Shown in pieces: positions 3,899 through 32,000 of a DNA stretch of 32,000 bases. The stretch lies in assembly GCA_963805875.1 (NCBI GenBank), contig CAWDWE010000002.1, positions 136,039-168,038 of the forward strand, read 5' to 3'. Position 1 is the first letter of the stretch. Every line of letters begins with the position of its first letter. Source of the stretch: Pirellulaceae bacterium (GTDB lineage Bacteria; Planctomycetota; Planctomycetia; Pirellulales; Pirellulaceae). Under the pieces are notes generated by a model that saw only the letters and a program-made list of their open reading frames with translations, was not told the DNA's origin and did no database searches. The translations under genes were made by a program, and so were the position numbers.

Positions 3899-3952
3899 AA
3901 AGCATTGCCCGGCGATGGGCGGATTTGTTTGTGTAAGACAGCAGACTGAATT

Positions 3953-4106
3953 GGCCCCCACTGAGCTTGTCTCAGTGGAGCCGTGATTTTGCACTACGAT
4001 TTTTAGTCGCTGATCACTCCGCGATCAGCTTCGTGGACCGCGGAGTGATCCACGACAAAGACGTAGTGCAGAATCATCGCTCGACCGACGCAAGGTCGGC
4101 CGGGGC
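3953..4106. repeat. composite palindromic element built from two inverted copies of the 46-nt unit
   Basis: 3953-3998 is the reverse complement of the 1963-2008 unit. The flanks are identical and the hairpin carries two compensated base-pair changes. 4062-4106 is a more diverged direct-orientation copy. Between them lies a 12-bp inverted repeat, gatcactccgcg (4012-4023) / cgcggagtgatc (4040-4051). Confidence 0.8.
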
Positions 4107-7671: not shown

Positions 7672-7726
7672 GGAATATCTCCCAAAGAACTTCTAAATAA
7701 GATTGTTGATTCGAGGTAAAACCCAA

Positions 7727-8431
7727 CTAATTCAGTGACACTGGCAGGCGTTGGCAACCACGCACGGCGTCTGGTCCCAGATAAGACTGAAACGCCGCGT
7801 CACACAGCCGCACGAAATCAATTGCCCCGCTGGCCGCGTCCGGCATCATCGTATCCGGCGCCGTCACCTGCAGGGTGACGCTCGCCTCGCGCCGGCGGAG
7901 TTTCTGGAATGTCTTCTGAAAACCGTCTAATTCGGCCGCCTGCTGCGAGGGCAGTGTGTAATGCCAATAGTAAACGAGCCTCGTGTCGTTCTCATCGCCA
8001 TAGCGCAGTTGCTGCACCGGCGACTTTTGGCCGGGAACTTCGACCAGCGCCCGGCCCCCTTCGACTTCGTGATATCCCGCGACGGGGTAGCAAACCTCCG
8101 GATGATGGCCGCGATCTTCGCCCACCTCGGAATAAACCACCCACACCTGCAAATGCTGCCCCGTCTCGACGTTCTGATAAACGCGCTGCAGGTGCTCCAG
8201 CGGATGCACATAGACCGTGTCGACCGTCTCATCGAGCTTCTCATCTTTTCCAACCTGTCGCCAACGGCCGCCGCCCAGTTCCTTGGGAAAATCCTTCAAC
8301 GCCTTGGTCAGCTTGCCGGGAGGATTGTCGCCCGAACCTTCCAGATGGGCCAACACGACCGTCTGCGTGATCAGGGCCACCACGGCCACGACGACAACCA
8401 CGATAACGCGATGGACAAGTTTGCTGGACAT
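7727..8431 (-). CDS. EpsI-family exosortase-associated protein (234 aa)
   Basis: N-terminal TM helix (VIVVVVVAVVALITQTVVLA). EpsI-like core LQVWVVYSEVGEDRGHHPEVCYPVAGY and later RLVYYWHYTL. GGAG Shine-Dalgarno upstream of the ATG. It starts 41 nt downstream of the exosortase gene on the same strand. Confidence 0.85.
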   Translation of the reverse strand: MSSKLVHRVIVVVVVAVVALITQTVVLAHLEGSGDNPPGKLTKALKDFPKELGGGRWRQVGKDEKLDETVDTVYVHPLEHLQRVYQNVETGQHLQVWVVYSEVGEDRGHHPEVCYPVAGYHEVEGGRALVEVPGQKSPVQQLRYGDENDTRLVYYWHYTLPSQQAAELDGFQKTFQKLRRREASVTLQVTAPDTMMPDAASGAIDFVRLCDAAFQSYLGPDAVRGCQRLPVSLN

Positions 8432-8472
8432 GTAGTGCTCCGCTCTTTTTTGCGTTTTAACTCAGTTCGATG

Positions 8473-9500
8473 TTACGCGGGTTGCGGCGATTCGGCCGAC
8501 GGGGGCGCTGCGGCGTTCCGCTCGCGATACCAATCGTCCATCCCTGCCATCAGCCAGGCGACCAGCACCAGCACCAACGCCGCCACGCCGATCATGATCA
8601 TGCCTTCATACTCGTGTAGTTTTCCCGTGGCCCATTGCGGCCCAGCGTGAATCATGATCAGGCCGGTGCCGAACACCCGCAGGCAATTCACAAGGATCGC
8701 CACCGGCGCGGCCACGGCCACCAACATGCCCGATAGCGCATGCTTCGCCCACTGAGATAGGCGATGGCAAACGCCAACGCCAGAATCGCCGTCAGCGATC
8801 GCAACCCGCTGCAGGCGTCTCCCACCAGCATGTCGTGGTCGCCGCGGATGTTGATGCGATAACCCGTGCGAATCGCCGGTTCGCCGATCAGGTCGAACAA
8901 AGTCACCGTGAAAATGCTCGCGAAGTGCTGCAAGGGCAGCGCCATTTTCTGATACACGAACGCCGGCAACGGCGCGGCGAAGATCAGGAAGAAAACGGGG
9001 AAGCCGTAAACCGCATTCGCCTTTTTTCCGCCCAGCGCCATGAGCACGCCCAGCAAGATAAAAATCAGGCCGACCACGTCGATGAACAACAATCGCCAGC
9101 CCAAAAACACGGACACCAGGTGCAGCAAAAAGCCGAAGGCGATTTCCAGGCAACCAATTGTCACGCAGCGCCGCGGCACATTCTCGCTGACCGGCAACAC
9201 TTCGTGCCGCGTGTAAGCCAGATAGCCCAGCGCCGCGGCAAACACGGGCACGACATAGCCGTGTGAGTAGTTGGGATCGATCTCCCAAACCTTGACCAGT
9301 TCGATCACCGTGCGGTAATAAATCAGCCCAATCGGCAGCAACACGCCCGCCAGCAGACCCACGTCCCGTTGCCAGGTGGGCCATCCCTCGGCGGCATCCG
9401 ACGCAGTCTCATCCAGCGCAACGCTATCCTTGGCCGCTTGCTCGTCGGCAGGCGGCTTCTGCTGGGTCCCATTCGGGGGTTGACGATCCGCAACGGACAT
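8473..9500 (-). pseudogene. exosortase (EpsH/Xrt family transpeptidase) with one apparent frameshift
   Basis: N-terminal part (frame of ORF 8688-9572): DPNYSHGYVVPVFAA, multiple TM helices, and the catalytic-Cys motif GDACSGLRSL (Cys codon 8811-8813). The C-terminal part continues in the frame of ORF 8473-9384 (GMLVAVAAPVAILVNCLRVFGTGLIMIHAG..HEYEG). The frame switch is near the GGG run at 8729-8731; adding one G gives ..AYLSGRSMRYRGMLVAVAAPVAILVNCLRV... The start is probably ATG 9500 (MSVADRQ), not 9572. Confidence 0.85.
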
Positions 9501-9640
9501 AGACACTGCCCCGAGTCGCAGAGGTGATAAAAGAAAAGGAAGACAGAGAAAACCTTCTCGCATTATGACCAACGCTTACGAGAAATTAAAGCTATTGGCG
9601 CAATCCCCGGTAATTTCGTCGCCGCCCACCCGGATAACCC

Positions 9641-11627: not shown

Positions 11628-11671
11628 CCGGGATTATTCACCTGCGGTGGGCCAAGCTCGCCCAAGTGAAC

Positions 11672-11778
11672 GGTGCGTCAGGCGCAAAGCGGTCGATCGG
11701 CCGTTCACACCCTGTTTTCCCATTGACGCTCAATAACGAGCGCCGACCCACCACGATCACGGCTTTGCTCGACGCACC
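11672..11778. repeat. palindromic element of the 'GGTGCGTC..GCAAAG' family (copy 2 of 3)
   Basis: Arms ggtgcgtcaggcgcaaag (11672-11689) and ctttgctcgacgcacc (11763-11778). It sits in the gap between the convergent PEP-CTERM and activator genes. Confidence 0.6.
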
Positions 11779-11802
11779 CAACAAGTCCATAAATAATTCG
11801 GG

Positions 11803-13206
11803 CTAGTCGTCCGTGCGGCGGTCTTTCATTTGGATCCGATACTTGCGGATCTTGTTGTAGAGCGTCACCCGGCTGATGCCGAGGGCGCGGGCGGCGGCCG
11901 CCCGATTGAAGTCGTGCAGGCGAAGCATTTCTTCGATGGCCTCTTGCTCGGTCTTGGCGACTTCGCTCGACAGCCCGACGGAAATCGTTTCGCCTAGCGA
12001 GATAGTTCTCGCCTCTTGGGCCTCGGCCAGCATTTCCGGTGAAAAGAGGTTGGGGGTGATGACGCCGTCGGGGCAGAAGAGCACGCTGTGGCGAACTTCA
12101 TTACGCAGTTCGCGGATGTTGCCCGGCCAGGAATAATGCCGCAGCAGCTCGAGATATTCCGGGTGGATCGCGGTGACATTCAGATCGCGCTCGCGGCAGC
12201 AGTCTTCGATAATCTCCGTGGCCAGCGGAACAATATCACCCTGCCGCTCGTGCAGCGGCGGGATCTCGAACTTCACCTCGTTGAGGCGGAAGTAAAGGTC
12301 GGCCCGGAACTTCCCGTGGTCGATCGCCTCTTCCAGGCTCTGATTCGATGCGCCGACGACGCGGACGTCCACCTTGCGGGTATCGTTTCCGCCCACCGGC
12401 TCGAACTCGCCCGTTTCGATCACGCGGAGCAGGTTCGCCTGTTGCTCCAGATCGAGCACGTCGATTTCATCGAGCAGCAGCGTGCCGCCGTTGGCCACCT
12501 CAAACTTGCCGAGCTTGTCGCGATCAGCGCCCGTGAAGGCGCCCCGCAGATGCCCGAACAATTCGCTCCCCATCAATTCGCCCGGCATGGCGCCGCAGGC
12601 GATGTTGAGAAAACGCTTATGGCTGCGACGCGAAAGATCGTGGATCAAACGGGCGAAGGTGGTTTTGCCCGTTCCGGTGTTGCCGACCAAGAGAATCGTA
12701 AAATCGTGCTCGGCCGCCCGCTCGATCTTCTCGAAGAGCGGAAACAGGCTCGGCGTGTAGGTGAAGTAGCGACGGTCTTCGACGAACAGTTCACGATGCC
12801 CGCTGCTCATTCGGGTGTTTTTTGCATGCCCCAGTTTCAACGCTTCGTCCAACATCCGCGGCAGTTCCGCCAGGCTCGCCTGAAAGCCAATGGCGCTGGC
12901 CATCGTGCGATCAGCGATGGCCGCCCAGTCGAGCGGATAACCCCGGTCGACGATGGCGACGCGGGCGCAATCCGTCGGCACGTTGCGGGCAAGCCGCCGA
13001 TTGGCGGTCGGCAAGTGCTGCCAATTCGTGCCGCTGCTGAAGTCAAGAAATATCCACTGGGGAGAGCCCAGCGGTAGATCGTTGTTCAACAGCGCGGACC
13101 ACTCGACAAGTACGACTTCGCATCCGCATTTGCTCGTCAGCGCATCATCAAACTTTTGACGTACCGCGTGACGGTCAGAAACAATCCACGCAATCCTGTC
13201 GCTCAT
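11803..13206 (-). CDS. sigma-54-dependent transcriptional activator (bacterial enhancer-binding protein) with an atypical N-terminal domain
   Basis: AAA+ core with Walker A GNTGTGKT, the sigma-54 contact loop GAFTGA (LRGAFTGADRDKLGKFEVANGGTLLLDEID), WPGNIRELRN, and a C-terminal Fis-type HTH (AAARALGISRVTLYNKIRKY). I place the start at ATG 13206 (MSDRIAWIV). The N-terminal roughly 150 aa resemble a receiver domain only loosely. Confidence 0.9.
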   Translation of the reverse strand: MSDRIAWIVSDRHAVRQKFDDALTSKCGCEVVLVEWSALLNNDLPLGSPQWIFLDFSSGTNWQHLPTANRRLARNVPTDCARVAIVDRGYPLDWAAIADRTMASAIGFQASLAELPRMLDEALKLGHAKNTRMSSGHRELFVEDRRYFTYTPSLFPLFEKIERAAEHDFTILLVGNTGTGKTTFARLIHDLSRRSHKRFLNIACGAMPGELMGSELFGHLRGAFTGADRDKLGKFEVANGGTLLLDEIDVLDLEQQANLLRVIETGEFEPVGGNDTRKVDVRVVGASNQSLEEAIDHGKFRADLYFRLNEVKFEIPPLHERQGDIVPLATEIIEDCCRERDLNVTAIHPEYLELLRHYSWPGNIRELRNEVRHSVLFCPDGVITPNLFSPEMLAEAQEARTISLGETISVGLSSEVAKTEQEAIEEMLRLHDFNRAAAARALGISRVTLYNKIRKYRIQMKDRRTDD

Positions 13207-13807: not shown

Positions 13808-14870
13808 ATGTACAGCATCCTCCTGGTGGGGGTGATCCTGGCGTATTACACGGTGATGATTTTGTTCGCGGGAAAATTGTTTGTCTGGACAGTTGACCTG
13901 ATTCGGTGGGTTTTTTCAGCCGGCTTTCACCTGGGGACGATTCCCGGCGCGTTGGCCATCCTCATTTTGGTGTTTCTCTGCCTGCGCACGGTGCGGCATT
14001 TGATTTACGCGTCGGTGGGCCTGGTGACCACGGTGCATGACGACGTGCCGGAGGCCAGCGAAGGGCTGCCACTGGAACGCGACGACCAACCGCGGTTGTT
14101 CGAACTGGTCGACGATGTCGGCCAACAGGTGGGCTCGCCGATGCCCAACGAAATCCGCGTGATGTATGCGCCGGAAACGTATACGGTCGAGCTGCGAAAA
14201 TTCGGACTTAGCCCGCAACGTCGCTTGGTGATGGTGCTGGGCTTGCCGCAATTGTCGGTGCTGACGGTGGCGGAACTGCAGGTTGTGCTGGCCCACGAGT
14301 TGGCCCATTTTGGCCGCGGCGACACGCGGCTGATCGTTTTCTGCGCGATTTTTGGCCGGTTTAGAGCGTTCCATTGAATCCATTGGGCATCGCTGGTGGC
14401 ATTGGATCGATCCGATTTACTGGTTTCAGTTGGGCTATCATCGCGCGTTTGCCTTGCTTTCTGCCCCCGTGCAGCGTCACCAGGAATTGCGGGCCGATTG
14501 CATCAGTGCCGCGACCTTCGGCGGCGAGTTGGCCGCCCGCACTTTACTGAAGGATTGCCTGCTTTCACATCAGTTCATGGCGGCGCTGGCTTCGTATTAC
14601 CCCGGCGAAAACGGCCCAACGGGCGACAATTTCTTTCGCTGGTTCCGCAGCCAATGGCACGATTTCACACCGGGGGGGCAGGATTACCTGCTGCGCCGAT
14701 TGGAGGCTGAGGAACGAGAGTCGTTCTGGGATCCCGACCCAACGATCTCCCAACGAGTTTCGTTGATGCGAACCTTCCCCACGCAAGAGCCACAACCGGC
14801 CCGGCCGGCCAGTGAGCTGATCGAGGGTCTGCCGGCGCTCGAAAATCGCCTGCACGATTTGATGTATTAG
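13808..14870 (+). pseudogene. M48-family (HtpX/Ste24-like) zinc metallopeptidase, membrane-anchored, one apparent frameshift
   Basis: N-terminal TM helices and the HExxH motif in VVLAHELAHFGRGDTRL. Reading continues in the next frame (ORF 14352-14870: ..FSARFLAGLERSIESIGHRWWHW..). The switch is at the T4 run 14337-14340; a T5 run would restore one ORF. Confidence 0.8.
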
Positions 14871-14889
14871 TCCAGTTTCTTGACGACCG

Positions 14890-15030
14890 TGTAGGGTGGG
14901 TCGAGCAAAGCCCTCCGGTTGGTGGGTCGGCGCTCGCTGGCCAGTTTGCCCAGGAGTACAAGGTGTCAGCGGCGCATCGTCGCTTTGCGCTGACCCACCG
15001 CGCAATTCAGCGAGCTTGACCCACCCTACA
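14890..15030. repeat. MITE-like palindromic element (copy 3 of the TAGGGTGGGTC family) flanked by a 16/17-nt direct repeat
   Basis: Terminal inverted repeats tgtagggtgggtcgagc (14890-14906) and gcttgacccaccctaca (15014-15030) match 16/17. There are nested inner inverted repeats (ggtgggtcggcgc / gcgctgacccacc). Flanking direct repeats are tccagtttcttgacga (14871-14886) and tccaagtttcttgacga (15047-15063). Confidence 0.75.
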
Positions 15031-15151
15031 TGAATAATCCGGGTTGTCCAAGTTTCTTGACGATTCGCCAAGTTCTGCTACCGTGAACTGTAAGGCATTC
15101 GGCCGGCAATGTTCTTTTCCACGAGTTCTATCTGAGAATGGACCCCACGTT

Positions 15152-18276: not shown

Positions 18277-19463
18277 TCATGATGCGACCGCCGCCACCAC
18301 CTTCTTTGCCGCATCGTTCAAATCGCTCGCCGTGATGCAATCGACGTCGCTTTCTTCCAGCATTTTGCGGCCTTCTTCGACTTCCGTCCCTTCCAGCCGC
18401 ACGACCAGCGGGACGTTGAAATCGAGCTGGTGGTAGGCTTCGATTAAGGCGGTGGCGATGGTGGTGCAGCGCATGATGCCGCCGAAGATGTTCACCAGCA
18501 CGGCCTTCACGGTCTTGTCATCGAGCAGAATGCGAAACGCCTCGGTGACCTGCTCGGTCTTCGCCCCGCCGCCGACATCCAGAAAGTTGGCCGGCTCGCC
18601 GCCGTGCAGTTTGATGATGTCCATCGTGCTCATCGCCAGCCCGGCGCCGTTGACCAGGCAGCCGATGTTGCCGTCGAGATTGACATAGGACAGGCCCGCC
18701 TCGCCCGCCCGCACTTCGGCCGGGTCTTCTTCGGACAGGTCGCGCATTTCGGCGACTGCCTCGTGGCGGAAGAGGGCGTTGTCGTCGAAGGTGAGCTTGG
18801 CATCCAGGGCGAGCAGCTCGCCGGCGCCAGTCACGACCAATGGGTTGATTTCCACCAGGCTGCAATCCTGCTCGACGTATAGTCGGCACAGAGCCGGGAG
18901 AAATTTCATTGCGCTCTTTACCGTCGGGCCGGATAGGCCGAGTCGATAACAAAGCTTTCGCACTTGAAACGGCTCGAGGCCCACGTCGGGATCAAACCAC
19001 TCTTTGATGATCTTTTCCGGTGTTTCCGCTGCGACTTTTTCAATCTCGACGCCCCCCTCGGTCGAGGCCATTAGCACGGGTTTGGCCTGCCTCGGTCGAG
19101 CACAATGCCCAGGTACAACTCGCGGGCGATGTCGCAGCCCTCTTCGACGAGCACCTGATGGACCGTCTTGCCTTCCGGGCCGGTCTGAATCGTGACGAGC
19201 GTCTTACCGAGCAAGCGGCCCGCGACCTGTTTGGCCTCGTCGGCGCTCTTTACTAATTGCACGCCTCTCTGCTGCTCGTCCCCTTGGATGGTTCCTTTGC
19301 CCCGGCCGCCCGCGTGGATTTGGGCCTTCACCACGGCGATCTTGCTGCCGAGATTATTAAACGCCGTAGCGGCATCCTCCGGCGAGCGAGCCACACTGCC
19401 GCGCGGCACGGTCACATTCGCCTGGCGAAAAATCTCTTTGCCTTGAAACTCGTGAATTTTCAT
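18277..19463 (-). pseudogene. sucC: succinyl-CoA synthetase beta subunit with one apparent frameshift
   Basis: The N-terminal ATP-grasp part begins at ATG 19463 ([22 protein letters not shown]...[11 protein letters not shown]). The remainder is in ORF 18277-19077 (..[36 protein letters not shown]..). The switch is at about 19080-19092; one extra G in 'agg cca aac ccg' gives [17 protein letters not shown]. Confidence 0.9.
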
Positions 19464-19539
19464 GTCGCGGCGTCCGCTGCTGGTGGTCGATGGATTCCAA
19501 CCAAACCGCGAATTATAGCGCCGCTGGGGCAGCTTCACA

Positions 19540-19605
19540 ACACTAGCCCGACGCGTAAGCGAGGGAATCCGCGCGGATTCCCTCGCTTACGCGTCGGGCT
19601 AGTGT
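19540..19605. repeat. perfect 66-bp palindrome ('ctagcccgacgcgtaagcgagg' family, copy 1)
   Basis: acactagcccgacgcgtaagcgagggaatccgc (19540-19572) is the exact reverse complement of 19573-19605. It lies between the sucC start and the stop of the NtrC-type regulator. A second, diverged copy is at 28399-28460. Confidence 0.9.
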
Positions 19606-19627: not shown

Positions 19628-21003
19628 TTACGCCCGCGCCCCGTCTTCCAACCCCAACCGCTTCATCTTTTTATAAAGCGTCGTGCGGTTGATGCCCAGC
19701 GCGTCGGCCGTTTCGTTGCGGTTCCAACTGTGCCGCTCGAGCGCGTCGAGGATGATGCGGCGTTCGGGGCCGGAGAGGGCGTCTTTGAGCGACTGCTGGC
19801 CTTGCGGCTCGACATAAACGGGCGCGTCGGCGGTGAGGTCGGGCGGCAGGTCGCCCATGCCGATCACGTCCCCTTTGCCCAGCAGCACGGCCCGCTCGAT
19901 GACGTTCTGCAGCTCCCGAACATTGCCCGGCCAGCGATAGCGCTGCAAAGCGGCGGTCGCTTCATCGCTGAAGCCGCGAACTTGCTTGCCGGTCTCTTCG
20001 CAAACCTCGCCGAGAAAATGCTTCGCCAACAGCGGGATGTCGGAGAACCGCTCCCGCAGGGCCGGCAGTTCAATGTTGATCACGTTGACGCGATAAAAAA
20101 GGTCTTGCCGAAACGTCCCGTCGGCGACGCGCTTGGTGAGGTCTTCGTTCGTCGCCAGAATTACGCGCGAGTCGACGTGAAACGTCTTCGTGCCGCCGAC
20201 TTGCTCGAACTCGAATTCTTGCAACACCCGCAGCAGCTTCACTTGCAAGCCGGGCGAGGCGGTGCCGATTTCGTCGAGGAAGATCGTGCCGCCATCAGAC
20301 TGCTTGAACTTGCCGATCTTGTCGACCGACGCGCCGGTGAACGAACCGGCGACGTGGCCGAACAGCTCGCTCTCTTGCAATGTCTCAGGCAGCGCCCCGC
20401 AAGCGACTTCGACGAATGGCCCGCCGCGGCGCCGCTGCGGCGATGAATGGCCCGCGCGATCAGCGATTTTCCCGTGCCGCTTTCGCCGGTGATCAGCACG
20501 GTCGCCTTGGTGTCGGCGATGCTGTCGACCATGTCGTAGATCCGCAGCATGCGGTGGTCGTGGCCGACGATGCTGTCCATGCCGAATCGCAGGTCGAGTT
20601 GCTCTTTGAGTTGCTGGTTCTCTTCCATCACGCTCCGCTGCGAGAGCGCGCGCTGGATGGCCATGTTCAGTTCTTCGTCGATCAGCGGCTTGGTGAGCAG
20701 ATCGAACGCCCCCGCCCGAATCGCCTCGATGCCCGTCTCGACTGTGCCGTAGCCGGTCAGCAGGATAACTGTCGCGTCGGGATGATGCTCGCGGCAGTGG
20801 GCCAGCACGTCGAATCCGTCGCCGTCGTCCAGGCGAATATCAGCTCAGCACCAGATCGAACGACGTCTCTCGCAATTTCGCGATCGCCTGCTGGCAACCA
20901 TCGGCCGCCTGCACCTGATATCCCTGCTCGACGAGCCAGGCGGCCATCGACTCCCGCAGATGACGATCGTCGTCAACCAACAATAGTGATCCGTTATTCA
21001 TAG
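19628..21003 (-). pseudogene. NtrC-family sigma-54-dependent response regulator (receiver + AAA+ + Fis HTH) with two apparent frameshifts
   Basis: Three ORFs join into one protein. The receiver is MNNGSLLLVDDDRHLRE..FDLVLS (20840-21003), and the frame changes at about 20842, where an extra T breaks the expected DLVLSDIRL. It continues [32 protein letters not shown], with a second frame change at about 20415-20440. It then continues ..[63 protein letters not shown] (to 19628). Confidence 0.85.
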
Positions 21004-21588
21004 CCTGCTTGTTCCTGCTCGCCTCGGAGATATCGCGGATTCCGATGGCATGTTGGCAGCGGCGCCGGGGAGCGGGCAACACTGTGGTTTGGGTGATTGG
21101 GTAATTTGCAGAAAATAGGAGTTGGCTTCTGTCGTGAATATCTACGTCACAGGATGCCTAGGGTCAACAAACGAAGCGAAACGGAAACATCGACGGAAGT
21201 CTTTGCCAGCTATGAAGTTCGGTCGTATCGACACGTCCGCCAAGACCGGCCGATTCGGTTAGTGCGGTTCTCCGCAAATTCACGTTCGTTCCGACCGCGA
21301 TACTGGTGGGCACCGTATTTACAGTTACTATTAGGGGGAGGATGACTGGGCGGAGGGAGGGCGGATACCCCCATTTGCCTGTCATGCTTTCCACCGTTCT
21401 TTTTCACGCACTAGGAGTCTATCCCACCCGATTGAGGTTTTGCTCGACGTTTCCAGTAGGGGAATGTTCATCCAGGTTGGCCGCGGGAGGCCGCCCGGCG
21501 TTTCCTTGGGGAGCTGAGGACAGACGAGAGGCCAATCGGATGGCAGCCATCGGACTTCCGTGCAGACGCCTTAGTCGAGGAGGCTTTC

Positions 21589-22236: not shown

Positions 22237-22273
22237 GTAGGACGGATTGTACTGAAGCACAAATCCGTCCTAC
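22237..22273. terminator. hairpin between convergent genes (possible bidirectional terminator)
   Basis: 12-bp perfect stem gtaggacggatt (22237-22248) / aatccgtcctac (22262-22273) with a 13-nt loop. It lies between the stop of the NarL-type gene (22227) and the stop of the 22270-23100 gene. There is no clear U-tract. Confidence 0.4.
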
Positions 22274-23100
22274 ACGGTCGTCGCCGGTTGATGCAACAGC
22301 GCGAGCAGTTCATCGGCTCGCCCTGTGGACAGAAGTTCGTCCACGGTTTGCGCCCATTCGTCGTTGAATCCCACAACGACTTCAGAATTGTCGAGATCGA
22401 CAACCTTCGCCTGCATTTGCTTCGCGCAATGCTCGGCGTCGAGCTTATCCTCCGGCGCCGCCATCAGGCGAAACGCTCGGGCGGGCGAGTGCTTCAAGCC
22501 GGTGGAAAAGTGAAGCTGCTCGCGGCGATCCGGCGGCAGTACATTAAACAGCCGATCGAGCCAGATCCGCAAGTTGTCGCCGCTACGTACAAGCACGTTT
22601 CCCTCGGCTGCAGCACACGCCAACTGCAACACCTTATGGCGAGTCGCTGCATCGCCCAGCGGATCCAAGAGCGCCGCCAGCGCGGGCGACGCACGTCCGC
22701 GCAACTTAATCGGCGGCAAGTCCTCAGAAAATCGCCGCATCACCCGCAAGTGTCCCGCGGCGACCACCGCGTCGAGCAGGCGGAACGGCTGATGGGCGAA
22801 CCGCTCGAGCACGTCCGCCGTCGCCAGCAAAAACGTCGTGTACACCTTCGGGCCGCCTCGCCCGCTGTACTCGGCTCCGGCGGGGACGGACTTCGAGACG
22901 CAAAAGGTTCCATCGCTTAAGCGATGAAAATTGATGCTCCCGCTGCGGGCGTCCGGGCGTAATAGCGAATCGTGCGCCGGCGCCCAAGCGGTCAACTCCT
23001 CCGCCTGCTCCGTCGAAACGCCGCTGCTGGTGGCCACCAGGTGGTAGCCGTCCATGCGGTCAGTGCGGGCGGAGGTGAAGATGGCTTGTTCTACGAGCAT
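22270..23100 (-). CDS. hypothetical protein translationally coupled to the GTPase; possibly a GAP1-like GTPase-associated protein (276 aa)
   Basis: Its start overlaps the upstream stop (TAATG). The N-terminus, MLVEQAIFTSARTDRMDGYHLVATSSGV, resembles from memory the 'Q-x-x-[YF]-T-S ... G-[FY]-x-x-x-A' opening of GTPase-associated (GAP1-type) proteins. The rest is not recognised. No TM segments. Confidence 0.6.
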   Translation of the reverse strand: MLVEQAIFTSARTDRMDGYHLVATSSGVSTEQAEELTAWAPAHDSLLRPDARSGSINFHRLSDGTFCVSKSVPAGAEYSGRGGPKVYTTFLLATADVLERFAHQPFRLLDAVVAAGHLRVMRRFSEDLPPIKLRGRASPALAALLDPLGDAATRHKVLQLACAAAEGNVLVRSGDNLRIWLDRLFNVLPPDRREQLHFSTGLKHSPARAFRLMAAPEDKLDAEHCAKQMQAKVVDLDNSEVVVGFNDEWAQTVDELLSTGRADELLALLHQPATTV

Positions 23101-24014
23101 TATTTCAGTTGCTCCACCAACCAGCTAAACGGCTCCACAATGCCGCGCGGCTCGATCCGCAGCGGCGTCTGCGAAAACGCCCCGCCGTCGCGATCGCCAT
23201 CGGCACACGCCCCGGCCACACCGCTGGCGAAGAACTTGTGCCGGCGAAAGCGCTCCTGGCACTGTTGCCACACGCCCGGCGCCTGCTTTCTGGCAAAGGC
23301 CGCCGGGTCGTCGAAACATTCTTCGCATTGATCCGACTTGCTGAAGATCATCGCCACCGGGCGACTCGGCCAGCCGGTCTTGCGATCGTTGTCCAGTTCC
23401 ATCAAGTAACTGAGTATCTTCATCGTGAAGAAGTCCTGGTCCTGATGCCCGGCGGCGATGCGGGCGGCGTCGACCAGCACAATCACGCCGGCGCACTGGA
23501 GCAGCAGCGAGCGAATCACCGGGTACGAATTCGGATGATCCGCCTCGTGCAAAATTGTCTCGCCCGCCATATCCGGCATGATGAGTTCCAGCGGGCGTTT
23601 GCGGGCTTTCATCCGCACCTGGCAATGCACCCAATTCCAGCGATCCGGCTCGTTCGGCGTTTTGGCCGGGAATTCGCAGCGCGATAGCGCCTTCATCGTG
23701 TTCTGTTGCAGCGTGATCGAAAACGCGCCGCGAGCGAGGATTTGCAGCCGCGAATCCTGCCGCGATAGCATGTCGGTGAGCATGCCCAGATAAACCGTCT
23801 TCCCCGCGCCGGTCGAGCCGATGCAGGCGACCATCTGCGGCTGGATGTGCTGCGTGTTGGCTTGATGCGTCAGCGCCATCGGAGCGTAGCAGTGCCGGCA
23901 CAACTCCGCGTCGAACGTGTTCGGCCCGTCGCAGACGTAGCACGGCACTTGCGCCGTGTACTGCGCCAGGCGATAGGAGTCCAACGGCACGATGACGTTG
24001 CTGGTGTCGTTCAT
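23100..24014 (-). CDS. zinc-ribbon-fused small P-loop GTPase (304 aa)
   Basis: N-terminal CxxC..CxxC (CYVCDGPNTFDAELCRHC). G1/Walker A is IGSTGAGKT (23796-23819), G3 is IMPDMAGE (DxxG), and the G4-like motif is FSKSD. The ATG directly abuts the TAG of the upstream gene. Confidence 0.75.
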   Translation of the reverse strand: MNDTSNVIVPLDSYRLAQYTAQVPCYVCDGPNTFDAELCRHCYAPMALTHQANTQHIQPQMVACIGSTGAGKTVYLGMLTDMLSRQDSRLQILARGAFSITLQQNTMKALSRCEFPAKTPNEPDRWNWVHCQVRMKARKRPLELIMPDMAGETILHEADHPNSYPVIRSLLLQCAGVIVLVDAARIAAGHQDQDFFTMKILSYLMELDNDRKTGWPSRPVAMIFSKSDQCEECFDDPAAFARKQAPGVWQQCQERFRRHKFFASGVAGACADGDRDGGAFSQTPLRIEPRGIVEPFSWLVEQLK

Positions 24015-25232
24015 CTACACTTCCTCGCAAACAAGTTCGTGTTCAGCGGGTACGTCGCTCGCCGTCTCGGCCGCCGCGCTGCGCAAATCGCACAGGCCGA
24101 TCGCGCAGCGAAATCCGATGTTGTGTTTCCGCGCCAAAGGGCTGTCGCCGCTTTGGAATTGGCAGGTCGCCTGACTCTCAAAATAGGTGTCGAAAGCGCC
24201 GCCGCGGAGACTCTTGAGCGAAACGTCCGGCTCCTGCCCGCCCGCCCAGCGATGCCACAGCCCGAACGAATCGCCGGTCCATTCCCAAACATTGCCGACC
24301 AATTGATAGACGCCGGCCACGCTCGCCCCGGCGTCGAAGTCGGCGACCGGACAAGTCCGCCCCAGGCCGGCGCTCCAGATGTTCGCGCGATCCGGTTCCC
24401 AGGCGTCTCCCCAGGGATAACGCCGTTGCTTGGGCAAGCTGCGCGGCGTCGGCATCGGCCAGCAGCCCGCCTTGACCCACTCTGCATCGCTCGGCAGGCG
24501 CTTGCCGACCCAGCGGGCATAGGCGCTCGCTTCGTGCCAGGAAACGCCGACGACCGGATGATCATCCTCGCCGCGCGGGTAGCTGCCGTCCTTCCAATAG
24601 TGCGGCCCCGTCTGCCCAGTGAGGTCGGTAAATCCGAACACGGCCGGCCAGATGTTGGCGTCCCAGAGGGCCATCTGTTCGTAACCGCCGGCTTCGATAA
24701 ATTGCTTGAATTGGTGGTTGGTCACCGGGTGGCGGTCCAAGAGCACGGCCTCCACGCGAACGACCTGCCCGGCCGACCGCACAGGGCGTTCGTCGGCGTC
24801 GCGGTCGTCGGGCTGGCTCATGAAGACATCCCCTTCAGGAACCATCGCCATGTGCTCTTCCAGCGCGGCGTTCGCCTGGGCGACCTGTTCTTTGGACAAG
24901 TTGGCGGCGACCTGCGGCCGCATCAATAGGGCGTAGCGGCTCTGCCAGAGCATCTCGCCGACGAGGTCGTTGGGATCGCCCGGCGGCTTGCGCGATGCGG
25001 CCTTTGAGCGTATTGCGATTACCGTATGCTGCTGTTCCACCGATTCGTTGGACGCAGAGCTGCGACGCTTCGCACTTCGGGCGGTCCAAAACGTCCACGC
25101 CAGCCCGGCCAGCGCGACGACACCGCCCGCGGGCATCAGCCACGCGCTTTCCGCTTGCGTTCCCACCCAGCATAGGCCCAGCCCCCCCAGCAATCCGGCC
25201 CCGCCTAGGGCGACTCGCGTGAATGTTTTCAT
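24015..25232 (-). CDS. membrane-anchored FGE-sulfatase (SUMF1-like, C-type-lectin-fold) domain protein, probably non-catalytic (405 aa)
   Basis: Two N-terminal hydrophobic helices (ALGGAGLLGGLGLCWVG; GGVVALAGLAWTFW). FGE-domain signatures: LDRHPVTNHQFKQFI, HPVVGVSWHEASAYARWVGKRLPSDAEW, GNVWEWTGD, LRGGAF, NIGFRCA. The canonical catalytic 'C-H-x-S-Y-C' pair after RGG is absent (RGGAFDTYFESQATCQFQ). GAGG Shine-Dalgarno upstream. Confidence 0.85.
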   Translation of the reverse strand: MKTFTRVALGGAGLLGGLGLCWVGTQAESAWLMPAGGVVALAGLAWTFWTARSAKRRSSASNESVEQQHTVIAIRSKAASRKPPGDPNDLVGEMLWQSRYALLMRPQVAANLSKEQVAQANAALEEHMAMVPEGDVFMSQPDDRDADERPVRSAGQVVRVEAVLLDRHPVTNHQFKQFIEAGGYEQMALWDANIWPAVFGFTDLTGQTGPHYWKDGSYPRGEDDHPVVGVSWHEASAYARWVGKRLPSDAEWVKAGCWPMPTPRSLPKQRRYPWGDAWEPDRANIWSAGLGRTCPVADFDAGASVAGVYQLVGNVWEWTGDSFGLWHRWAGGQEPDVSLKSLRGGAFDTYFESQATCQFQSGDSPLARKHNIGFRCAIGLCDLRSAAAETASDVPAEHELVCEEV

Positions 25233-25274
25233 GATCGTATGCCTCGCTCTGTCTGTCGCTACTTCGAAGACGAT

Positions 25275-26237
25275 TTATTGCAGTTTCCGCTTCCGCCTTT
25301 GCGCCACGTCCTTTTGCAGCTTCGCAAATTGTTCCATGATCGAATCGACCACCGGCTCGGCGGGCGGCGGCGGGCTTTCGCGCTGTGGCGCCGGCGATGC
25401 GACGGTTTGTTCGCTCGCGGCAGTGCGCTCGACCGTTTGCCGCGACCAGCCGCCGGCTTGCGTGTCGATGATTTGCCGCAGGTTTTTCAGTTCCACCGAC
25501 CAGAGCGCCTGTTGGTGTGTCAACTGATCCTTCTGTTCCGCCAATGCTTCAGAAAGCTCCGCGGCGCGGCGGCGGACCATTTCCAGTTCCGTTTCTAAGG
25601 CCACGCGCTCGTGGTCGGAATCGGAGTTCGATACTTCCTTGTCCAATTGATCGATTTGCTCTTGGAGCTCCAAAATCGTCTTTCGCGATTCGGAAAGCTG
25701 CGTCTGCGTGCTGGCGAGTTGCTCGGTCGCGTCGGCTCGCCGGGCCAACTCGTCGCGGCAGACGTCCAGGCGCTGCTTCAAATCGTCGCGCTGCTCTTCG
25801 AGCTTTGCCACGACCGCCTGCAACTGCCCGCTGTTTGGATCGTCGCCGGCGCTGGCGCGGGCTAAGGTGATGTCGCTGCGGACGCTGTTTAGCTCGGCGG
25901 TGAGTTGTTCCAACTGCTGCTGCATCAGTTGCTTGATGTCGTCGTTCTGCGAACTGCGTTCTTGTAGCACTTGCTCGCGTTCTTCAAGCCGCGCCTTGCG
26001 CAGGGCGATTTCGGATTGCCGCTGCGAAAGCCGCGTGCCCAATGCTTCCATGGCCGCGAACGATGACTCGACGAAGCTTTCCAATTGGCCGCGCTCCTCG
26101 CGCAGCCGTCGCAGCGTCTCGGCGATGAGGGCCACGCCGGGAAGATTGTGCAGGTCGATGTTGGGTAGTTCTAAGCTGGCTTGGGACACAGAATTAACCT
26201 GTTGATCGCGAAAAGGCACAGCGGGCTTCGGCGACAT
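25275..26237 (-). CDS. coiled-coil protein (320 aa), first gene of the GTPase operon
   Basis: About 230 aa of heptad-like Glu/Gln/Leu/Arg-rich sequence (..LEEREQVLQERSSQNDDIKQLMQQQLEQLTAELNSV.., ..ILELQEQIDQLDKEV..). The tail is Pro-rich and then basic (..MEQFAKLQKDVAQRRKRKLQ). It ends 42 nt upstream of the FGE-domain gene. Confidence 0.7.
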   Translation of the reverse strand: MSPKPAVPFRDQQVNSVSQASLELPNIDLHNLPGVALIAETLRRLREERGQLESFVESSFAAMEALGTRLSQRQSEIALRKARLEEREQVLQERSSQNDDIKQLMQQQLEQLTAELNSVRSDITLARASAGDDPNSGQLQAVVAKLEEQRDDLKQRLDVCRDELARRADATEQLASTQTQLSESRKTILELQEQIDQLDKEVSNSDSDHERVALETELEMVRRRAAELSEALAEQKDQLTHQQALWSVELKNLRQIIDTQAGGWSRQTVERTAASEQTVASPAPQRESPPPPAEPVVDSIMEQFAKLQKDVAQRRKRKLQ

Positions 26238-26422
26238 ATTTCAAGATGAGGGTGCAAAGTCTCGCCACGAAAACTTTAGGTCAACATTTGCCACCCGGCA
26301 AAAAGAGGCCCGCCGGCAGCCGGCAGAATCGACACGATCGCCCCACGTGGAGGCAGGCGGCCCGCCTGCCTCATCTCAGCAAGATGGAAACCGCAGGCGA
26401 GCCGCCTGTGGCCACCCTTAAC

Positions 26423-26487
26423 GGGAGGGCGAGGCTCCTGCCGAGCCGCCGAGCGTCAGCGAGGCTCCGCGGGAGCGTCGCCCTCCC
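26423..26487. repeat. GC-rich palindromic repeat(s) in the mtaB / operon intergenic region
   Basis: 10-bp arms gggagggcga (26423-26432) / tcgccctccc (26478-26487) enclose duplicated gcgaggctcc motifs. A separate palindrome, gaggcaggcgg-c-ccgcctgcctc, lies at 26350-26372, and a small hairpin cggc-aca-gccg at 26491-26501. Confidence 0.7.
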
Positions 26488-26509
26488 AAACGGCACAGCC
26501 GTTCGTGTC

Positions 26510-28398: not shown

Positions 28399-28460
28399 AC
28401 TAGCCCGACGCGTGAGCGAGGAGTTTCCGGCTGCATTCCTCGCTTACGCTTCGGGCTAGT
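28399..28460. repeat. palindromic repeat ('ctagcccgacgcg..agcgagg' family, copy 2)
   Basis: Arms actagcccgacgcgtgagcgagga (28399-28422) and tcctcgcttacgcttcgggctagt (28437-28460) have 2 mismatches and a 14-nt loop. It belongs to the same family as 19540-19605. It occupies the false 5' extension of ORF 28303-29856. Confidence 0.85.
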
Positions 28461-28482
28461 GTGTAAGGATTGTGAAAACGCT

Positions 28483-29856: not shown

Positions 29857-29935
29857 CACGCTGCCCCGAACGGGCGAAAGCGAACCGGACACTGCTGTCG
29901 CCCTTTCAGGGCTTGAAATTCATCGACGCCCGAAA

Positions 29936-29980
29936 CCGGGGGCTAACGCCCCCGGCTACGCGCTGTCGTCCCTTCGGGAC
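29936..29980 (+). terminator. two GC hairpins downstream of the M20 gene (terminator or REP-like)
   Basis: ccgggggc-taac-gcccccgg (29936-29955) and gtccc-ttc-gggac (29968-29980). No obvious U-tract. Confidence 0.35.
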
Positions 29981-30004
29981 TAAGCCAACGCTGGAAATTA
30001 AGTC

Positions 30005-30415
30005 ATGCTCGACCGCAAATACATTCTCGAAAACGCCGCCGCCGTTAAGCAAAACTGCATCGACCGCGGGGCGACCGCCGATGTCGACGGCCTGGTAAAG
30101 CTCGAAACCAAGCGCCGCGAGTTGTTGCAGAAAGTGCAAGACCTCAACACCCAGGCGAACCAGGTCAGCAAGACGATCGGCCAGGCGAAAGACGCCGCCG
30201 AGCGCGATGCCCGCAAGGAGGAAGGCCGAAAGCTCCGCGAGCAAAAGGACGCTGCGCAGACCGAACACGACGAACTCGAAGAAAAGATCCTCGACATCGC
30301 CCGGATGATTCCCAACCTCACCCACCCCGACGCGCCTCTCGGCGAGGATGACCAGGCGAATCTCGAGCTTCGCAAGGGCGCAGAGCAAACACCGTACCTG
30401 AACGAAATACAATGA
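30005..30415 (+). pseudogene. serS: seryl-tRNA synthetase, N-terminal coiled-coil arm only (truncated at the compositional junction)
   Basis: MLDRKYILENAAAVKQNCIDRGA..LLQKVQDLNTQANQVSKTIGQAKD..IPNLTHPDAPLGEDDQANLELRKG matches the SerRS N-terminal tRNA-binding arm. The reading frame ends after 136 codons, whereas SerRS is normally about 420-430 aa. The last few codons lie in AT-rich foreign sequence. Confidence 0.85.
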
Positions 30416-30433
30416 AAAATATAAACATAACCG

Positions 30434-31098
30434 TTATGTATTGCTCAACCAATTTTTTTCAATGTAATTACCAGCGCCATCCTGATACCAGATATTATAC
30501 ATTACAACTTTTAAAACCGCGCTTTTATAGTCATCCGGATATTCTGTTTTCAATTTGTAGAAAGCACGGGCAGCCGTATTGCCACCTCCCCATGCCTAAT
30601 GTAAACGGGAGCAGGATTTTTTTCTAATAAAACCTGCACAATTTTTTAAGACCCCGCGGGTGTCAATCCAATTATCCTGGGCTAAAAGTAATTTTAGCAC
30701 CAGGTTTGAGTTCCCATCTTTTATTTATCAATCCTCGCAGGTGATCATTATCCTCTATCCCCAATGCAACTAATTTCTCTTAACTTATCTATAGTGGGAT
30801 AATTGGGATTGTGTTTAATCAGGTTCGGAGACAATTTAGCGTATGCCTCTAATTGTTTTTCATACCAGTTTTTTTGCCATGTCCCTCTCTCTGGAATATT
30901 GAATTTGTTTCAACTTATAGCAGATACTTCAACGTCAACAGGTATACAGTAAAAACCGTATCATTGAACTGTGATCATCAACATCTCCATTGGTCATTAT
31001 GATAACTCTTGTTTTTTTGACTTGTTCTGCGCATTTAAACCTGTTATCGCTGATAAAAGAATAATATATATTAGCAATAAGGAAATTTTCTTTAAATT
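30434..31098 (-). pseudogene. DUF1593-like (nucleoside-hydrolase-like) secreted protein, multiply frameshifted and 3'-truncated; Bacteroidota-like
   Basis: Minus-strand fragments in different frames: a signal peptide KKISLLLIYIILLSAITGLNAQ, then KKTRVIIMTNGDVDDHSSMIRFLLYT, then NIPERGTWQKNWYEKQLEAYAKLSPNLIKHNPNYPTIDKLREI, then AWGGGNTAARAFYKLKTEYPDDYKSAVLKVVMYNIWYQDGAGNYIEKNW. One shift is at the 7-nt homopolymer 31012-31018. No start codon was resolved. The assignment is from memory of the DUF1593 motifs (TDgexDD..S..R.LLY, WGG.NT.A). Confidence 0.5.
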
Positions 31099-31105
31099 CT
31101 ATAAT

Positions 31106-32000
31106 CTATTTGTTTTTAGAATAATATATTCTCACAGCCATATACTTAGCTGATGGCCATCTGATTGTAAAAGTTCCGGAATGCATGCCGTCAATTTCGC
31201 TAACGGTCATGTTCCATGTATCCAGGACATCCACCTGATATCCCTTCCCTTCCGGCATGGTGAAGCCTTTTTCGCTGGTCACTTCTTCTCCGAAACAGTA
31301 TAGATAGTAATCGTTTCCAGCTTCTGCTGATACACTATTGAGGGTTGTCAGCCCTCCGGGTAATGGTTTGGAATCGTTATTCAGGACTTCCTTACTGAGC
31401 GAGGATACCGTTTAGAACTTTTCCCAACAGGATACCGCCTTTCCAAAAGTATAAAGTGTTACTATAATATTTGCGATGGGTGGCATATGCTCCCTTAGTG
31501 GTGGCCATCCAATGACGGTATAATTCTTCTTCGCCACTAAGCTTGCCCCAATAAGCCCCCAAATCTCCTTCGTAACCATATTCATCGAGTAAGACAGGTT
31601 TATCATACTCAGATTTAAATGCGTGTAAATCGATTAATTCTTTGGCGTCTTTACCAATCTGGTAACTAATATGAGTAACCCAGTCTTTTTTCCAGTCATA
31701 CTTTTTTCCAGGAAGGGCATGAATCGAAAGTAAATGATTATATGGATCTGCATCCGCTACAATGTTACCAAGTGTATCCCAATATCCATATGATTTATCT
31801 ATCAAATCAAATTCGTTAGCCATCGACCACCAAATATTTTGATAAGCTGAAAGCCTGGCCGTTACATACTCTAAATAAAATTTCTTGTCAGCATCACTCA
31901 TCTTATCAAATCCAAATTCTCCTCTATCATAGGGATGAAATAAGATGAAATCTGCCTGAATACCTAATTCGTCTAAATCGCGCACACTTTTATCAATCAT
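31106..32000 (-). pseudogene. DUF4038/DUF5605-type glycoside-hydrolase-like protein; 5' end outside the window, one or more frameshifts
   Basis: ORF 31392-32000 (..ILFHPYDRGEFGFDKM..NIWWSMANEFDL..LLSIHA..LLDEYGYEGD..) continues in another frame. The continuation is LSKEVLNNDSKPLPGGLTTLNSVSAEAGNDYYLYCFGEEVTSEKGFTMPEGKGYQVDVLDTWNMTVSEIDGMHSGTFTIRWPSAKYMAVRIYYSKNK*, with the stop at 31106-31108. The frame switch is at about 31395-31425. The region is AT-rich. Confidence 0.65.

Follow-up and report, generated by a model that had tools for sequence, protein, structure and literature searches.

Four genes of a planctomycete lie so close together that they raise the question of which common task their products could serve. 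They are found on contig CAWDWE010000002.1 of a Pirellulaceae bacterium (GenBank assembly GCA_963805875.1), of which a stretch of 32,000 nucleotides, positions 136,039 to 168,038 of the forward strand, was analysed; this whole stretch is called the window, and coordinates are given in its numbering. The genes code for a coiled-coil protein, a predicted membrane-anchored protein with an FGE-sulfatase fold (the FGE protein), a zinc-ribbon GTPase of the DO-GTPase family and a GAP1-type partner protein. We favour, at a probability of roughly 0.55, the reading that they form one transcription unit for a membrane-proximal GTPase switch complex of the DO-GTPase/GAP1-N2 family, which serves a conserved cellular function.

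Organisation and conservation of the four genes

All four open reading frames (ORFs) are intact and tightly packed on the minus strand. Gene 1 (25275..26237) codes for the coiled-coil protein of 320 residues, gene 2 (24015..25232) for the FGE protein of 405 residues, gene 3 (23100..24014) for the DO-GTPase of 304 residues, and gene 4 (22270..23100) for the GAP1-type partner of 276 residues. Read from the sequence, 42 nt separate the stop codon of the coiled-coil gene from the ATG of the FGE gene, the TAG of the FGE gene directly abuts the ATG of the GTPase gene (gtgTAGATGaac), and the GTPase stop codon shares one nucleotide with the start of the GAP1 gene (aaaTAATGctc, a TAATG overlap). The ORF list and the sequence agree in this with the coordinates and junctions of the initial annotation, a first reading of the bare DNA, and the motifs quoted there (GSTGAGKT, PDMAGE, FSKSD, and MLVEQAIFTSARTDRMDGYHLVATSSGV) were all found.

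A stem–loop starts at the stop codon of the GAP1 gene (22240..22270, minus strand; GGACGGATT / AATCCGTCC), between GAP1 and the convergent gene for a LuxR-type response regulator. Fold energies of hairpins were judged by z scores against shuffled sequences; none of 200 shuffles was as stable as this structure (−24.6 kcal/mol, z = −7.1), which is likely the 3′ end of the four-gene unit. At the other end a consensus scan found a terminator-like hairpin with a U-run 3′ of the MiaB-like gene (26309..26327, minus strand). Its fold is weak (−12.2 kcal/mol, z = −1.0), and it is likely the upstream boundary. Because of the strong 3′ stem–loop and the weaker upstream hairpin the four genes look like a separate transcription unit. 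No sigma-70-like promoter was found in 26238–26308, which says little for a planctomycete. Still further upstream, the intergenic sequence 26340–26500 (minus strand) contains GC-rich inverted repeats, read by eye, namely GGGAGGGCGA...TCGCCCTCCC about 45 nt apart and also GGCAGGCGGGCCGCCTGCC; a terminator of the MiaB-like gene, a repeat element, and a regulatory site are the candidates for their nature.

Is the arrangement kept in other genomes? A species-level scan with one genome per species gave 203 genomes with a relative of the GTPase, and 80 loci were fetched, each from another assembly and all from Pirellulales or other Planctomycetota. Colinearity was counted on the 62 loci with sufficient flanking DNA, no two of which come from the same species-level genome. 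In 59 of them the genes for coiled-coil protein, FGE protein, GTPase, and GAP1 follow each other in this order on one strand. The three exceptions are a locus with an in-frame FGE–GTPase fusion (L042) and two loci without a detected coiled-coil gene. Contig look-ups that started from the GTPase, and others that started from GAP1 and included Bremerella alba, gave one order as well, consisting of an unannotated protein of about 290 residues, FGE-sulfatase, DO-GTPase, and GAP1-N2. From the FGE side the same operon was met in both loci checked (L089 and L090), one of them attributed to Thermoguttaceae. The commonest junction between FGE and GTPase genes is a 4-nt overlap (51/82 cases).

It could be argued that unrelated genes merely lie side by side, their spacing being a consequence of genome compaction. 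This is a general possibility, and planctomycete genomes are rich in genes with FGE-sulfatase domains. Nevertheless, the genes are colinear in 59/62 loci despite a complete turnover of the flanks, the reciprocal look-ups agree, and fusions exist, so that we give this explanation next to no weight; with the neighbourhood kept across the planctomycete loci, chance adjacency can be discarded. Since no flanking family is common to more than about 31 of 86 loci in a clustering of the neighbours, the four genes themselves constitute the conserved unit.

The extent of divergence differs between the four proteins. BLASTP showed all four to be homologues of the window proteins, with identities of 59–68% for the GTPase, 44–56% for the FGE protein, 35–42% for GAP1, and 26–42% for the coiled-coil protein. 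A database clustered at 90% contained 1443 relatives of the GTPase; the best 120 are about 302 residues long and 62–86% identical, and all of these bear both DO-GTPase Pfam marks. GAP1 relatives are 36–60% identical, with lengths from about 230–310 up to about 330–476 residues. In a library of 1.84 billion representatives 324 GTPase relatives were detectable, the full-length ones (about 300 residues) ranging from 60% to 31% identity. Among the distant loci, L086 (GTPase 41% identical; 4601–9322) has coiled-coil, FGE, and GTPase genes together, and L088 (GTPase 36% identical) has FGE, GTPase, and GAP1 genes together.

Neighbouring products also occur joined. GTPase and GAP1-N2 are combined in P0289 (460 residues) and P0281 (626 residues), and FGE protein and GTPase in L042 (687 residues, 5843–7906) and P0341 (570 residues); some of these joined ORFs or proteins may be frameshift artefacts of assembly instead of real fusions. 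A complex had initially been proposed from the tight coupling of the genes. As the four natural fusions show the expected orientation and the genes are translationally coupled, the sequences suggest that the proteins form a complex.

Across the loci the flanks consist of core genes, among them those for AspRS, carA, an aminotransferase, the thioredoxin reductase TrxB, a LutB-like protein, LptE, BamD, RecO, and YbeY. In the window the flanks code for a MiaB-type methylthiotransferase, ClpS, an M20 peptidase, and two response regulators. For the same genome pairs the median pairwise identity was 61% for the GTPase, 53% for the FGE protein, 42% for GAP1, and 36% for the coiled-coil protein, as compared with 73% for carA, 75% for the aminotransferase, and 78% for AspRS (77% for the GTPase on the AspRS subset). 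The divergence of the operon and that of the core genes are correlated (r = 0.61–0.96). Relatives were found neither on viral contigs nor on plasmids, and PADLOC gave no match for the GTPase, GAP1, or the FGE protein. Judged by these comparisons, the pattern is that of a module passed on vertically and kept by purifying selection, unlike that of a shuffled defence island. In the clade the module is apparently single-copy and conserved across Pirellulales and related Planctomycetota.

Some other genes recur beside the operon. Divergently 5′ of the coiled-coil gene, 30 loci code for a Cys-rich protein of 166 residues with an N-terminal hydrophobic segment resembling a signal peptide (representative L043, 971–1471), and 20 loci for a hydrophobic, probably membrane protein of 138 residues (representative L054, 3838–4254); neither family is at that position in the window. 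The gene fliM lies several kilobases upstream of the operon in L001 (1311–1772) and L002 (1–291) and directly downstream, in convergent orientation, in the Bremerella-type loci L004 (9278–10327) and L005 (9256–10287). A functional link with fliM was dropped, as the gene stays below eight loci in the neighbour clustering and its proximity is probably coincidental.

Properties of the four proteins

A profile search with Pfam confirmed all domain calls that had been made from the raw sequence. Matches were judged by the gathering scores of the families (27 bits for the DO-GTPase families, 24 bits each for GAP1-N2 and GAP1-M). Conservation was read from alignments of 70 FGE, 94 GAP1, and 42 coiled-coil homologues and from two alignments of the GTPase (A1 and A3).

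The GTPase matches DO-GTPase1 and DO-GTPase2 (PF19975 with 52.7 bits and PF19993 with 51.0 bits), both above the cut-off. These families, like those of GAP1, originate from the comparative study of Kaur, Burroughs, Iyer, and Aravind (eLife 2020, PMC7159879), which introduces the DO-GTPases as a new family of the TRAFAC class in which Walker B has a conserved glutamate and N-terminal zinc ribbons are frequent. In the window protein a zinc ribbon (C25-x2-C28 ... C39-x2-C42; 23889..23942, minus strand) has four Cys invariant in both alignments. It is followed by the G1 motif or P-loop GSTGAGKT (residues 66–73; 23796..23819), in which G66 is invariant and G71, K72, and T73 are conserved in at least 90%, by the G3 or Walker B motif DMAGE (residues 148–152; 23559..23573), with D148 and G151 invariant and E152 in at least 90%, and by the G4-like motif SKSD (residues 225–228; 23331..23342; family consensus TKAD), with K226 and D228 invariant. 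Glu152 takes the position of Gln61 in Ras and matches the Walker B hallmark named by Kaur et al. Also invariant or nearly so are K118-T119, probably holding the switch-I threonine, the pair C230-x-x-C233, and a C-terminal PLRIEPRG motif; the protein has 12 Cys in all.

Foldseek matched the AF2 model of the GTPase (pLDDT 80.7) with probability 1.0 and TMt up to 0.68 to Arl6, Arl13B, Arf6, Sar1, SR-beta, Rab, EF-Tu, YcjX, and Gtr. By this model the protein has a TRAFAC small-GTPase fold and belongs to no specific housekeeping family; membership in one would have counted against the reading of the initial annotation. When the GTPase profile was searched against PDB sequences, only P-loop noise and no solved relative came up, and NCBIfam contained no model for the GTPase or for GAP1. 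Transmembrane segments are absent from both proteins, as the initial annotation had already stated.

The partner protein matches GAP1-N2 (PF20013, 1.1e-16) with 61.6 bits, well above the cut-off, and 94 of 94 family members match it as well; the earlier suggestion of a GAP1-type protein is borne out by this match and by its presence downstream of the GTPase in 59/62 loci, or fused to it. With 23.8 bits GAP1-M (PF20014, E 5.3e-5) just misses its cut-off of 24, and 72 of the 94 relatives match at E up to 5, the best at 5.4e-7, so that this domain is probably present in the window protein (residues 169–237; 22390..22596, minus strand). Its motif is SFxTGLKxSPRRPFRL, and in the 94 sequences R193, L202, and R208 are invariant and S197, F198, T200, S205, and F210 conserved in at least 90%. 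Kaur et al. describe GAP1 as a downstream partner of three domains, N, M, and C (PMC7159879). The third globular domain, GAP1-C, is absent here, as the protein ends about 40 residues past GAP1-M and represents a short N2+M form. Relatives of 415–476 residues have an extra conserved C-terminal helical module, for which no Pfam match was found and which the window clade (276–305 residues) does not have.

In the AF2 model of GAP1 (pLDDT 93.5, pTM 0.91) the order of elements assigned by DSSP in residues 1–114 is beta-beta-alpha-beta-beta-beta-alpha-alpha, the order of longin domains, and residues from about 120 to 276 form an alpha/beta domain. The GAP1-N2 domain (residues 3–119; 22744..23094, minus strand) would accordingly be longin-like in the model. 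The best Foldseek matches were FLCN/FNIP2, DENND10, GATOR1, and TagF, and these were weak (TM 0.22–0.33). A Pfam scan of the 94 relatives at E up to 5 gave none of the DENN, longin, folliculin, NPR, and TagF families, and nothing meaningful was obtained from a PDB search with the GAP1 profile. We consider the likeness to FLCN/FNIP, DENND10, and GATOR1 a weak structural lead. Between the model strands 66–76 and 84–93 lies the loop AEYSGRGG (residues 76–83; 22852..22875, minus strand), of which E77, S79, and R81 are invariant in the 94 sequences. FLCN and NPRL2 are arginine-finger GTPase-activating proteins (GAPs) with an invariant Arg in a longin-domain loop, and by analogy with them Arg81 is a candidate arginine finger.

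In the FGE protein the match to FGE-sulfatase (PF03781, 4.1e-42) covers residues 126–377. Among solved structures the FGE-like domains of EgtB and OvsA come closest, followed by SUMF2, CalU17, and true FGEs; the PDB alignments span residues 130–328 only. With the FGE/EgtB–OvoA/SUMF2 family the protein shares the fold and the motifs GNVWEWT and RGG. Compared with wild-type human FGE, Cys336 is replaced by Thr349 and Cys341 by Glu352, while Cys346 is kept. Thr occupies the first position in 69 and Asp or Glu the second in all of the 70 homologues. The motif equivalent to the catalytic Cys pair, RGGAFDTYFESQATC (residues 343–357; 24162..24206, minus strand), belongs to the near-invariant family motif RGGAFDTYF[DE]xQATCQFQSG. 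The absence of the Cys pair, noticed already in the initial annotation, is a property of the family, and an FGE enzyme of the SUMF1 type was rejected because the Cu-binding pair is replaced. A sulfoxide or selenoxide synthase of the EgtB/OvoA/SenA type was rejected as well: an NCBIfam scan found no DinB iron-binding domain, and the EgtB profile scored 102 against a cut-off of 360, with only its positions 139–413, the C-terminal FGE-like part, aligned. The Cys pair is missing also from SUMF2, to which there is a direct PDB match; SUMF2 is non-catalytic.

A receptor diversified by a diversity-generating retroelement (DGR) was considered and rejected, too, as the window has no template/variable repeat pair and the C-terminal motif is near-invariant. 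No repeats involving 24015–24400 were found in the window, and no reverse transcriptase among the annotated neighbours. From its conservation, the FGE domain would bear a fixed site for a putative ligand.

The position of this domain relative to the membrane depends on the N-terminus, for which two hydrophobic segments had been annotated. They were found at residues 7–23 and 32–48, are rich in Gly and Ala, and make up a hydrophobic hairpin (residues 7–48; 25089..25214, minus strand). Its loop of eight residues is uncharged and devoid of Lys and Arg, of which two are present in the N-terminal and four in the C-terminal flank. Across the family the uncharged stretch has a median length of 38.5 residues with Lys or Arg at both sides. 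According to the positive-inside rule applied to these flanks, an N-in/C-in hairpin with the FGE domain on the cytoplasmic side is predicted, and the FGE protein of L086, which has neither hairpin nor signal peptide, fits this topology. The initial annotation had proposed a lectin-fold membrane sensor. A membrane anchor is indeed predicted, but the predicted cytoplasmic location of the FGE domain does not agree with an external lectin-type sensor. Between anchor and FGE domain a linker helix (residues 85–113, LVGEMLWQSRYALLMRPQVAANLS; 24894..24980, minus strand) is strongly conserved in the alignment.

An explanation that starts from the FGE fold is that the operon is an enzyme-maturation or metabolic module, with the FGE-fold protein as a divergent enzyme of an oxidase or sulfoxide-synthase-like type, and with the Cys-rich zinc-ribbon GTPase and its partner as the dedicated factor for assembly or metal delivery. 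The coupling of FGE protein and GTPase is the tightest in the operon, with the 4-nt overlap in 51/82 cases and two fusions; the equivalent of the FGE active centre shows strong conservation; PDB and NCBIfam gave as best matches the enzymes EgtB, OvsA, and SenA; and the 12 Cys of the GTPase include the invariant C230-x2-C233. However, the Cu-binding Cys pair is gone, a DinB-type iron-binding domain is missing, and the EgtB score stays far under the cut-off. Furthermore, the GTPase has a TRAFAC fold similar to Arf and Rab and not the G3E fold of metallochaperones, and the coiled-coil scaffold has no obvious place in such a pathway. Elsewhere the DO-GTPase/GAP1 pair is accompanied by other partners, such as tubulin, HSP70, and kinases (Kaur et al. 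2020, PMC7159879), so that its role is not specific for FGE proteins. We regard a maturation module as improbable.

Gene 1 gave matches only to segments of SMC, Rad50, and JetC of the coiled-coil type. PADLOC matches of its product to segments of LmuB, JetC, and ZorA were rejected as composition matches. Homologues 26–42% identical stand 5′ of the FGE gene in 59/62 loci. In the 42 homologues the rod is weakly conserved, whereas the last 26 residues, past a variable linker rich in Pro and Ala, are near-invariant. This C-terminal motif (residues 295–320, PVVDSIMEQFAKLQKDVAQRRKRKLQ; 25278..25355, minus strand) comprises an amphipathic helix, with the highest hydrophobic moment of the protein (muH 0.56), and a polybasic tail, and it is kept in the distant locus L086 as DPVVQAVAAQLELLQ. 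The C-terminal helix resembles a membrane-targeting or partner-docking element.

Role of the putative switch complex

How could the four proteins act together? In the favoured reading the FGE-fold domain, tethered by the hairpin to the inner membrane at its cytoplasmic face, would serve as a binding platform without catalytic activity, and synthesis of the FGE protein would be coupled 1:1 to that of the GTPase. The zinc-ribbon GTPase, whose G motifs are all intact and which has Glu152 at the Gln61 position, would cycle between GTP and GDP. GAP1, whose N-domain is longin-like and whose middle domain is of the alpha/beta type, would attach to the GTPase and regulate it specifically, most likely as a GAP acting through the invariant Arg81 in the way FLCN and NPRL2 act on Rag GTPases. 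The coiled-coil protein may be the scaffold or the output, and its amphipathic polybasic C-terminal helix would recruit it either to the membrane or into the complex.

An operon of this general type has already been described in silico, in purely computational work, and the finding is less novel than the initial annotation implied. The link to Kaur et al. drawn in the initial annotation proved correct: the paper names FGS domains in some planctomycete GAP1-N2 systems, in one sentence and without experiments (PMC7159879). In common with this variant the window operon has a zinc-ribbon DO-GTPase with the Walker B glutamate, a downstream N2+M GAP1, an FGS protein, membrane proximity, and a planctomycete host. 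GAP1-N2 systems typically contain two zinc ribbons and a rapidly evolving FNIII-repeat protein (PMC7159879). In contrast, the window operon has a single CxxC...CxxC ribbon, one GTPase gene, a GAP1 without a C-terminal module, and no FNIII protein; no FNIII match was obtained in the four proteins, in the window flanks, or in the called genes of L001–L005, L089, and L090. Its components are moreover constant between species and its locus is core-genome-like. As a fourth component the coiled-coil protein is always part of the window type of operon, and no mention of such a partner of the planctomycete FGS variant was found in the text of Kaur et al. Added by the present analysis are this fixed coiled-coil component, the gene order kept in 59/62 loci, the prediction that the FGE domain faces the cytoplasm, a core-genome behaviour with vertical inheritance, the natural fusions, and the longin/DENN-like lead for GAP1. 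A literature search on DO-GTPase, GAP1, and planctomycete genetics gave no experimental work, in line with the earlier remark that a characterised four-gene system of this kind was not known.

The main rival reading is defence. In a biological-conflict system the FGS domain would bind or neutralise an invader molecule at the membrane, GTPase and GAP1 would set the threshold, and the coiled-coil protein would form a containment or abortive-infection assembly. The family itself, including the planctomycete FGS variant, speaks for this, since its discoverers read the DO-GTPase/GAP1 class as conflict systems, and FGS domains are also found in the VMAP/iSTAND ternary systems (Kaur et al. 2020, PMC7159879). 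In addition, evolution is faster in GAP1 and in the coiled-coil protein than in the GTPase, and the GAP1 C-terminus differs in length between lineages. Apart from this C-terminus, however, no variable components differing between relatives were seen: the four families are constant in 59/62 loci without swapping of effectors. The FGS site is near-invariant with no DGR, and its domain is predicted to be cytoplasmic. Profile scans of the proteins found no toxin, nuclease, peptidase, or pore domain, and the FNIII sensor component of typical GAP1-N2 systems is missing. Finally, core genes flank the operon, its divergence is congruent with theirs, and there is no association with PADLOC systems, plasmids, or viral contigs. 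We therefore consider a conflict system possible but rather unlikely. The initial annotation had spoken of a sensing or conflict system; the GTPase-centred family assignment stands, but the conflict half is disfavoured by the evolutionary pattern. This pattern favours a conserved cell-biological role, perhaps in envelope, polarity, or membrane organisation, over an arms race.

Several points weigh against a housekeeping switch complex. Conserved, vertically inherited immune modules exist. The synteny was tallied on loci picked by GTPase similarity and not on all Pirellulales genomes, and in the distant locus L086 no GAP1 gene is adjacent, the downstream gene coding for an RNase HII-like N-terminus. 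Gene starts were taken from the longest ORF, which makes the coiled-coil–FGE and GTPase–GAP1 spacings approximate. The topology of the FGE protein comes from hydrophobicity and the positive-inside heuristic instead of a trained predictor, and a simple window method gave a single merged hydrophobic segment in about half of the homologues. The literature search brought up no functional, expression, or interaction work on a family member, and the wider family is classed as conflict systems, as stated above (PMC7159879).

Among characterised systems, MglA–MglB of Myxococcus and other bacteria likewise places a small TRAFAC GTPase beside a dedicated regulator of the Roadblock/longin fold group and follows the logic of a spatial switch at the membrane or cell pole; longin domains have been linked to MglB (Zhang et al. 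2012). There is no sequence kinship, however, and the window GAP1 has two domains with the strand order of longin and not of Roadblock. The window operon has in addition the FGE-fold and coiled-coil partners, the zinc ribbon, and Glu instead of Gln after DxxG. With the eukaryotic longin/DENN-type GAP complexes for Rag, Arf, and Rab GTPases, namely FLCN–FNIP, NPRL2/3 of GATOR1, DENND10, and C9orf72–SMCR8, the GAP1 model, whose best matches are of this kind, has in common a longin-order N-domain followed by an alpha/beta domain, and the GTPase model resembles Arf/Arl/Rag-type G domains. The likeness to FLCN/GATOR1-type complexes is structural and weak (TM 0.22–0.33) without a sequence-profile signal, and partners and context are different.

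From this a far-reaching and quite speculative possibility arises. GAP1 proteins could be bacterial longin-plus-DENN-like regulators, and DO-GTPase/GAP1 could be the prokaryotic counterpart, possibly a relative, of the Rag/Arf–FLCN/GATOR1 switches. In Pirellulales it would have become fixed as a core machine of four proteins. Together with a cytoplasmic platform of lectin fold, anchored by its hairpin, and a coiled-coil scaffold that binds the membrane, it would organise a housekeeping process of the membrane or the cell cycle and would not be directed against invaders. Pirellulales are FtsZ-less budding bacteria with elaborate membrane invaginations. To our knowledge, planctomycetes have neither FtsZ nor most of the known regulators of division and polarity.

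Remainder of the window and meaning of the operon

Outside the operon at least six genes are split by frameshifts, among them those of a TPR protein, the exosortase EpsH, SucC, and an NtrC-type sigma-54 activator, the last in three pieces (4159–7671, 8473–9572, 18277–19538, and 19628–21082). EpsH is split between positions 4–194 and 194–253 of its Pfam profile and SucC between positions 1–117 and 121–202 of ATP-grasp_2. Because housekeeping genes are fragmented likewise in a sister long-read contig (L003), the frameshifts are probably errors of long-read assembly and not pseudogenes. It had been argued that the operon is intact amid frameshifts. At their density, however, a stretch of 4 kb stays intact by chance with P = 0.24–0.43 (Poisson), which makes the argument uninformative; given probable assembly errors and chance escape, the intactness of the operon is no evidence of selection.

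The EpsH gene lies beside large TPR-repeat genes (4159–9572), possibly as a PEP-CTERM/exosortase sorting locus unrelated to the operon. An element of 65 nt at 19540–19605 is a perfect palindrome of 33+33 nt with a second copy of 82% identity at 28399–28463. The copies are intergenic, one after the SucC fragments and the other within the 5′ end of the longest ORF called for the M20 peptidase, and the element looks like a repeated palindromic element of the REP type. A repeat of 46–48 nt occurs at 1962–2010, 3951–3998, and 4061–4106. The first two copies are an inverted pair (92% complementarity) around an ORF of 636 residues without Pfam match (2084–3994), and the third is a direct copy beyond it; the repeats could mark the termini of a small mobile element or represent a further REP family. 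Two adjoining pairs of inverted repeats (54 and 69 nt; 74–78% complementary) at 11628–11805 and 14868–15043 enclose about 3 kb. Close to them, at 10–12 kb, the GC content dips to 0.51–0.55, which may indicate an inserted segment. At the window edge (30001–32000) it drops from about 0.61 over 0.46 to 0.38, possibly because of foreign DNA, and the ORFs 29906–30412 and 31392–32000 on the minus strand have no Pfam match.

What would the operon mean for the family and for its host? DO-GTPase/GAP1 is a large class known from one comparative-genomics paper, for which we found no solved structure, assay, or phenotype. The planctomycete version, consisting of one GTPase, a short GAP1, the FGE-fold protein, and the coiled-coil protein, is simple and constant and thus offers a clean entry for reconstituting the core switch. 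Eukaryotic small-GTPase regulators are currently traced only to MglB/Roadblock, and DENN is regarded as occurring in the eukaryotic DENN module alone. Should GAP1 prove to have a longin/DENN-like fold, this would bear on the origin of these regulators. If the housekeeping role were true, part of the family of conflict systems would need to be read anew, and planctomycete cell biology would gain a concrete candidate module.

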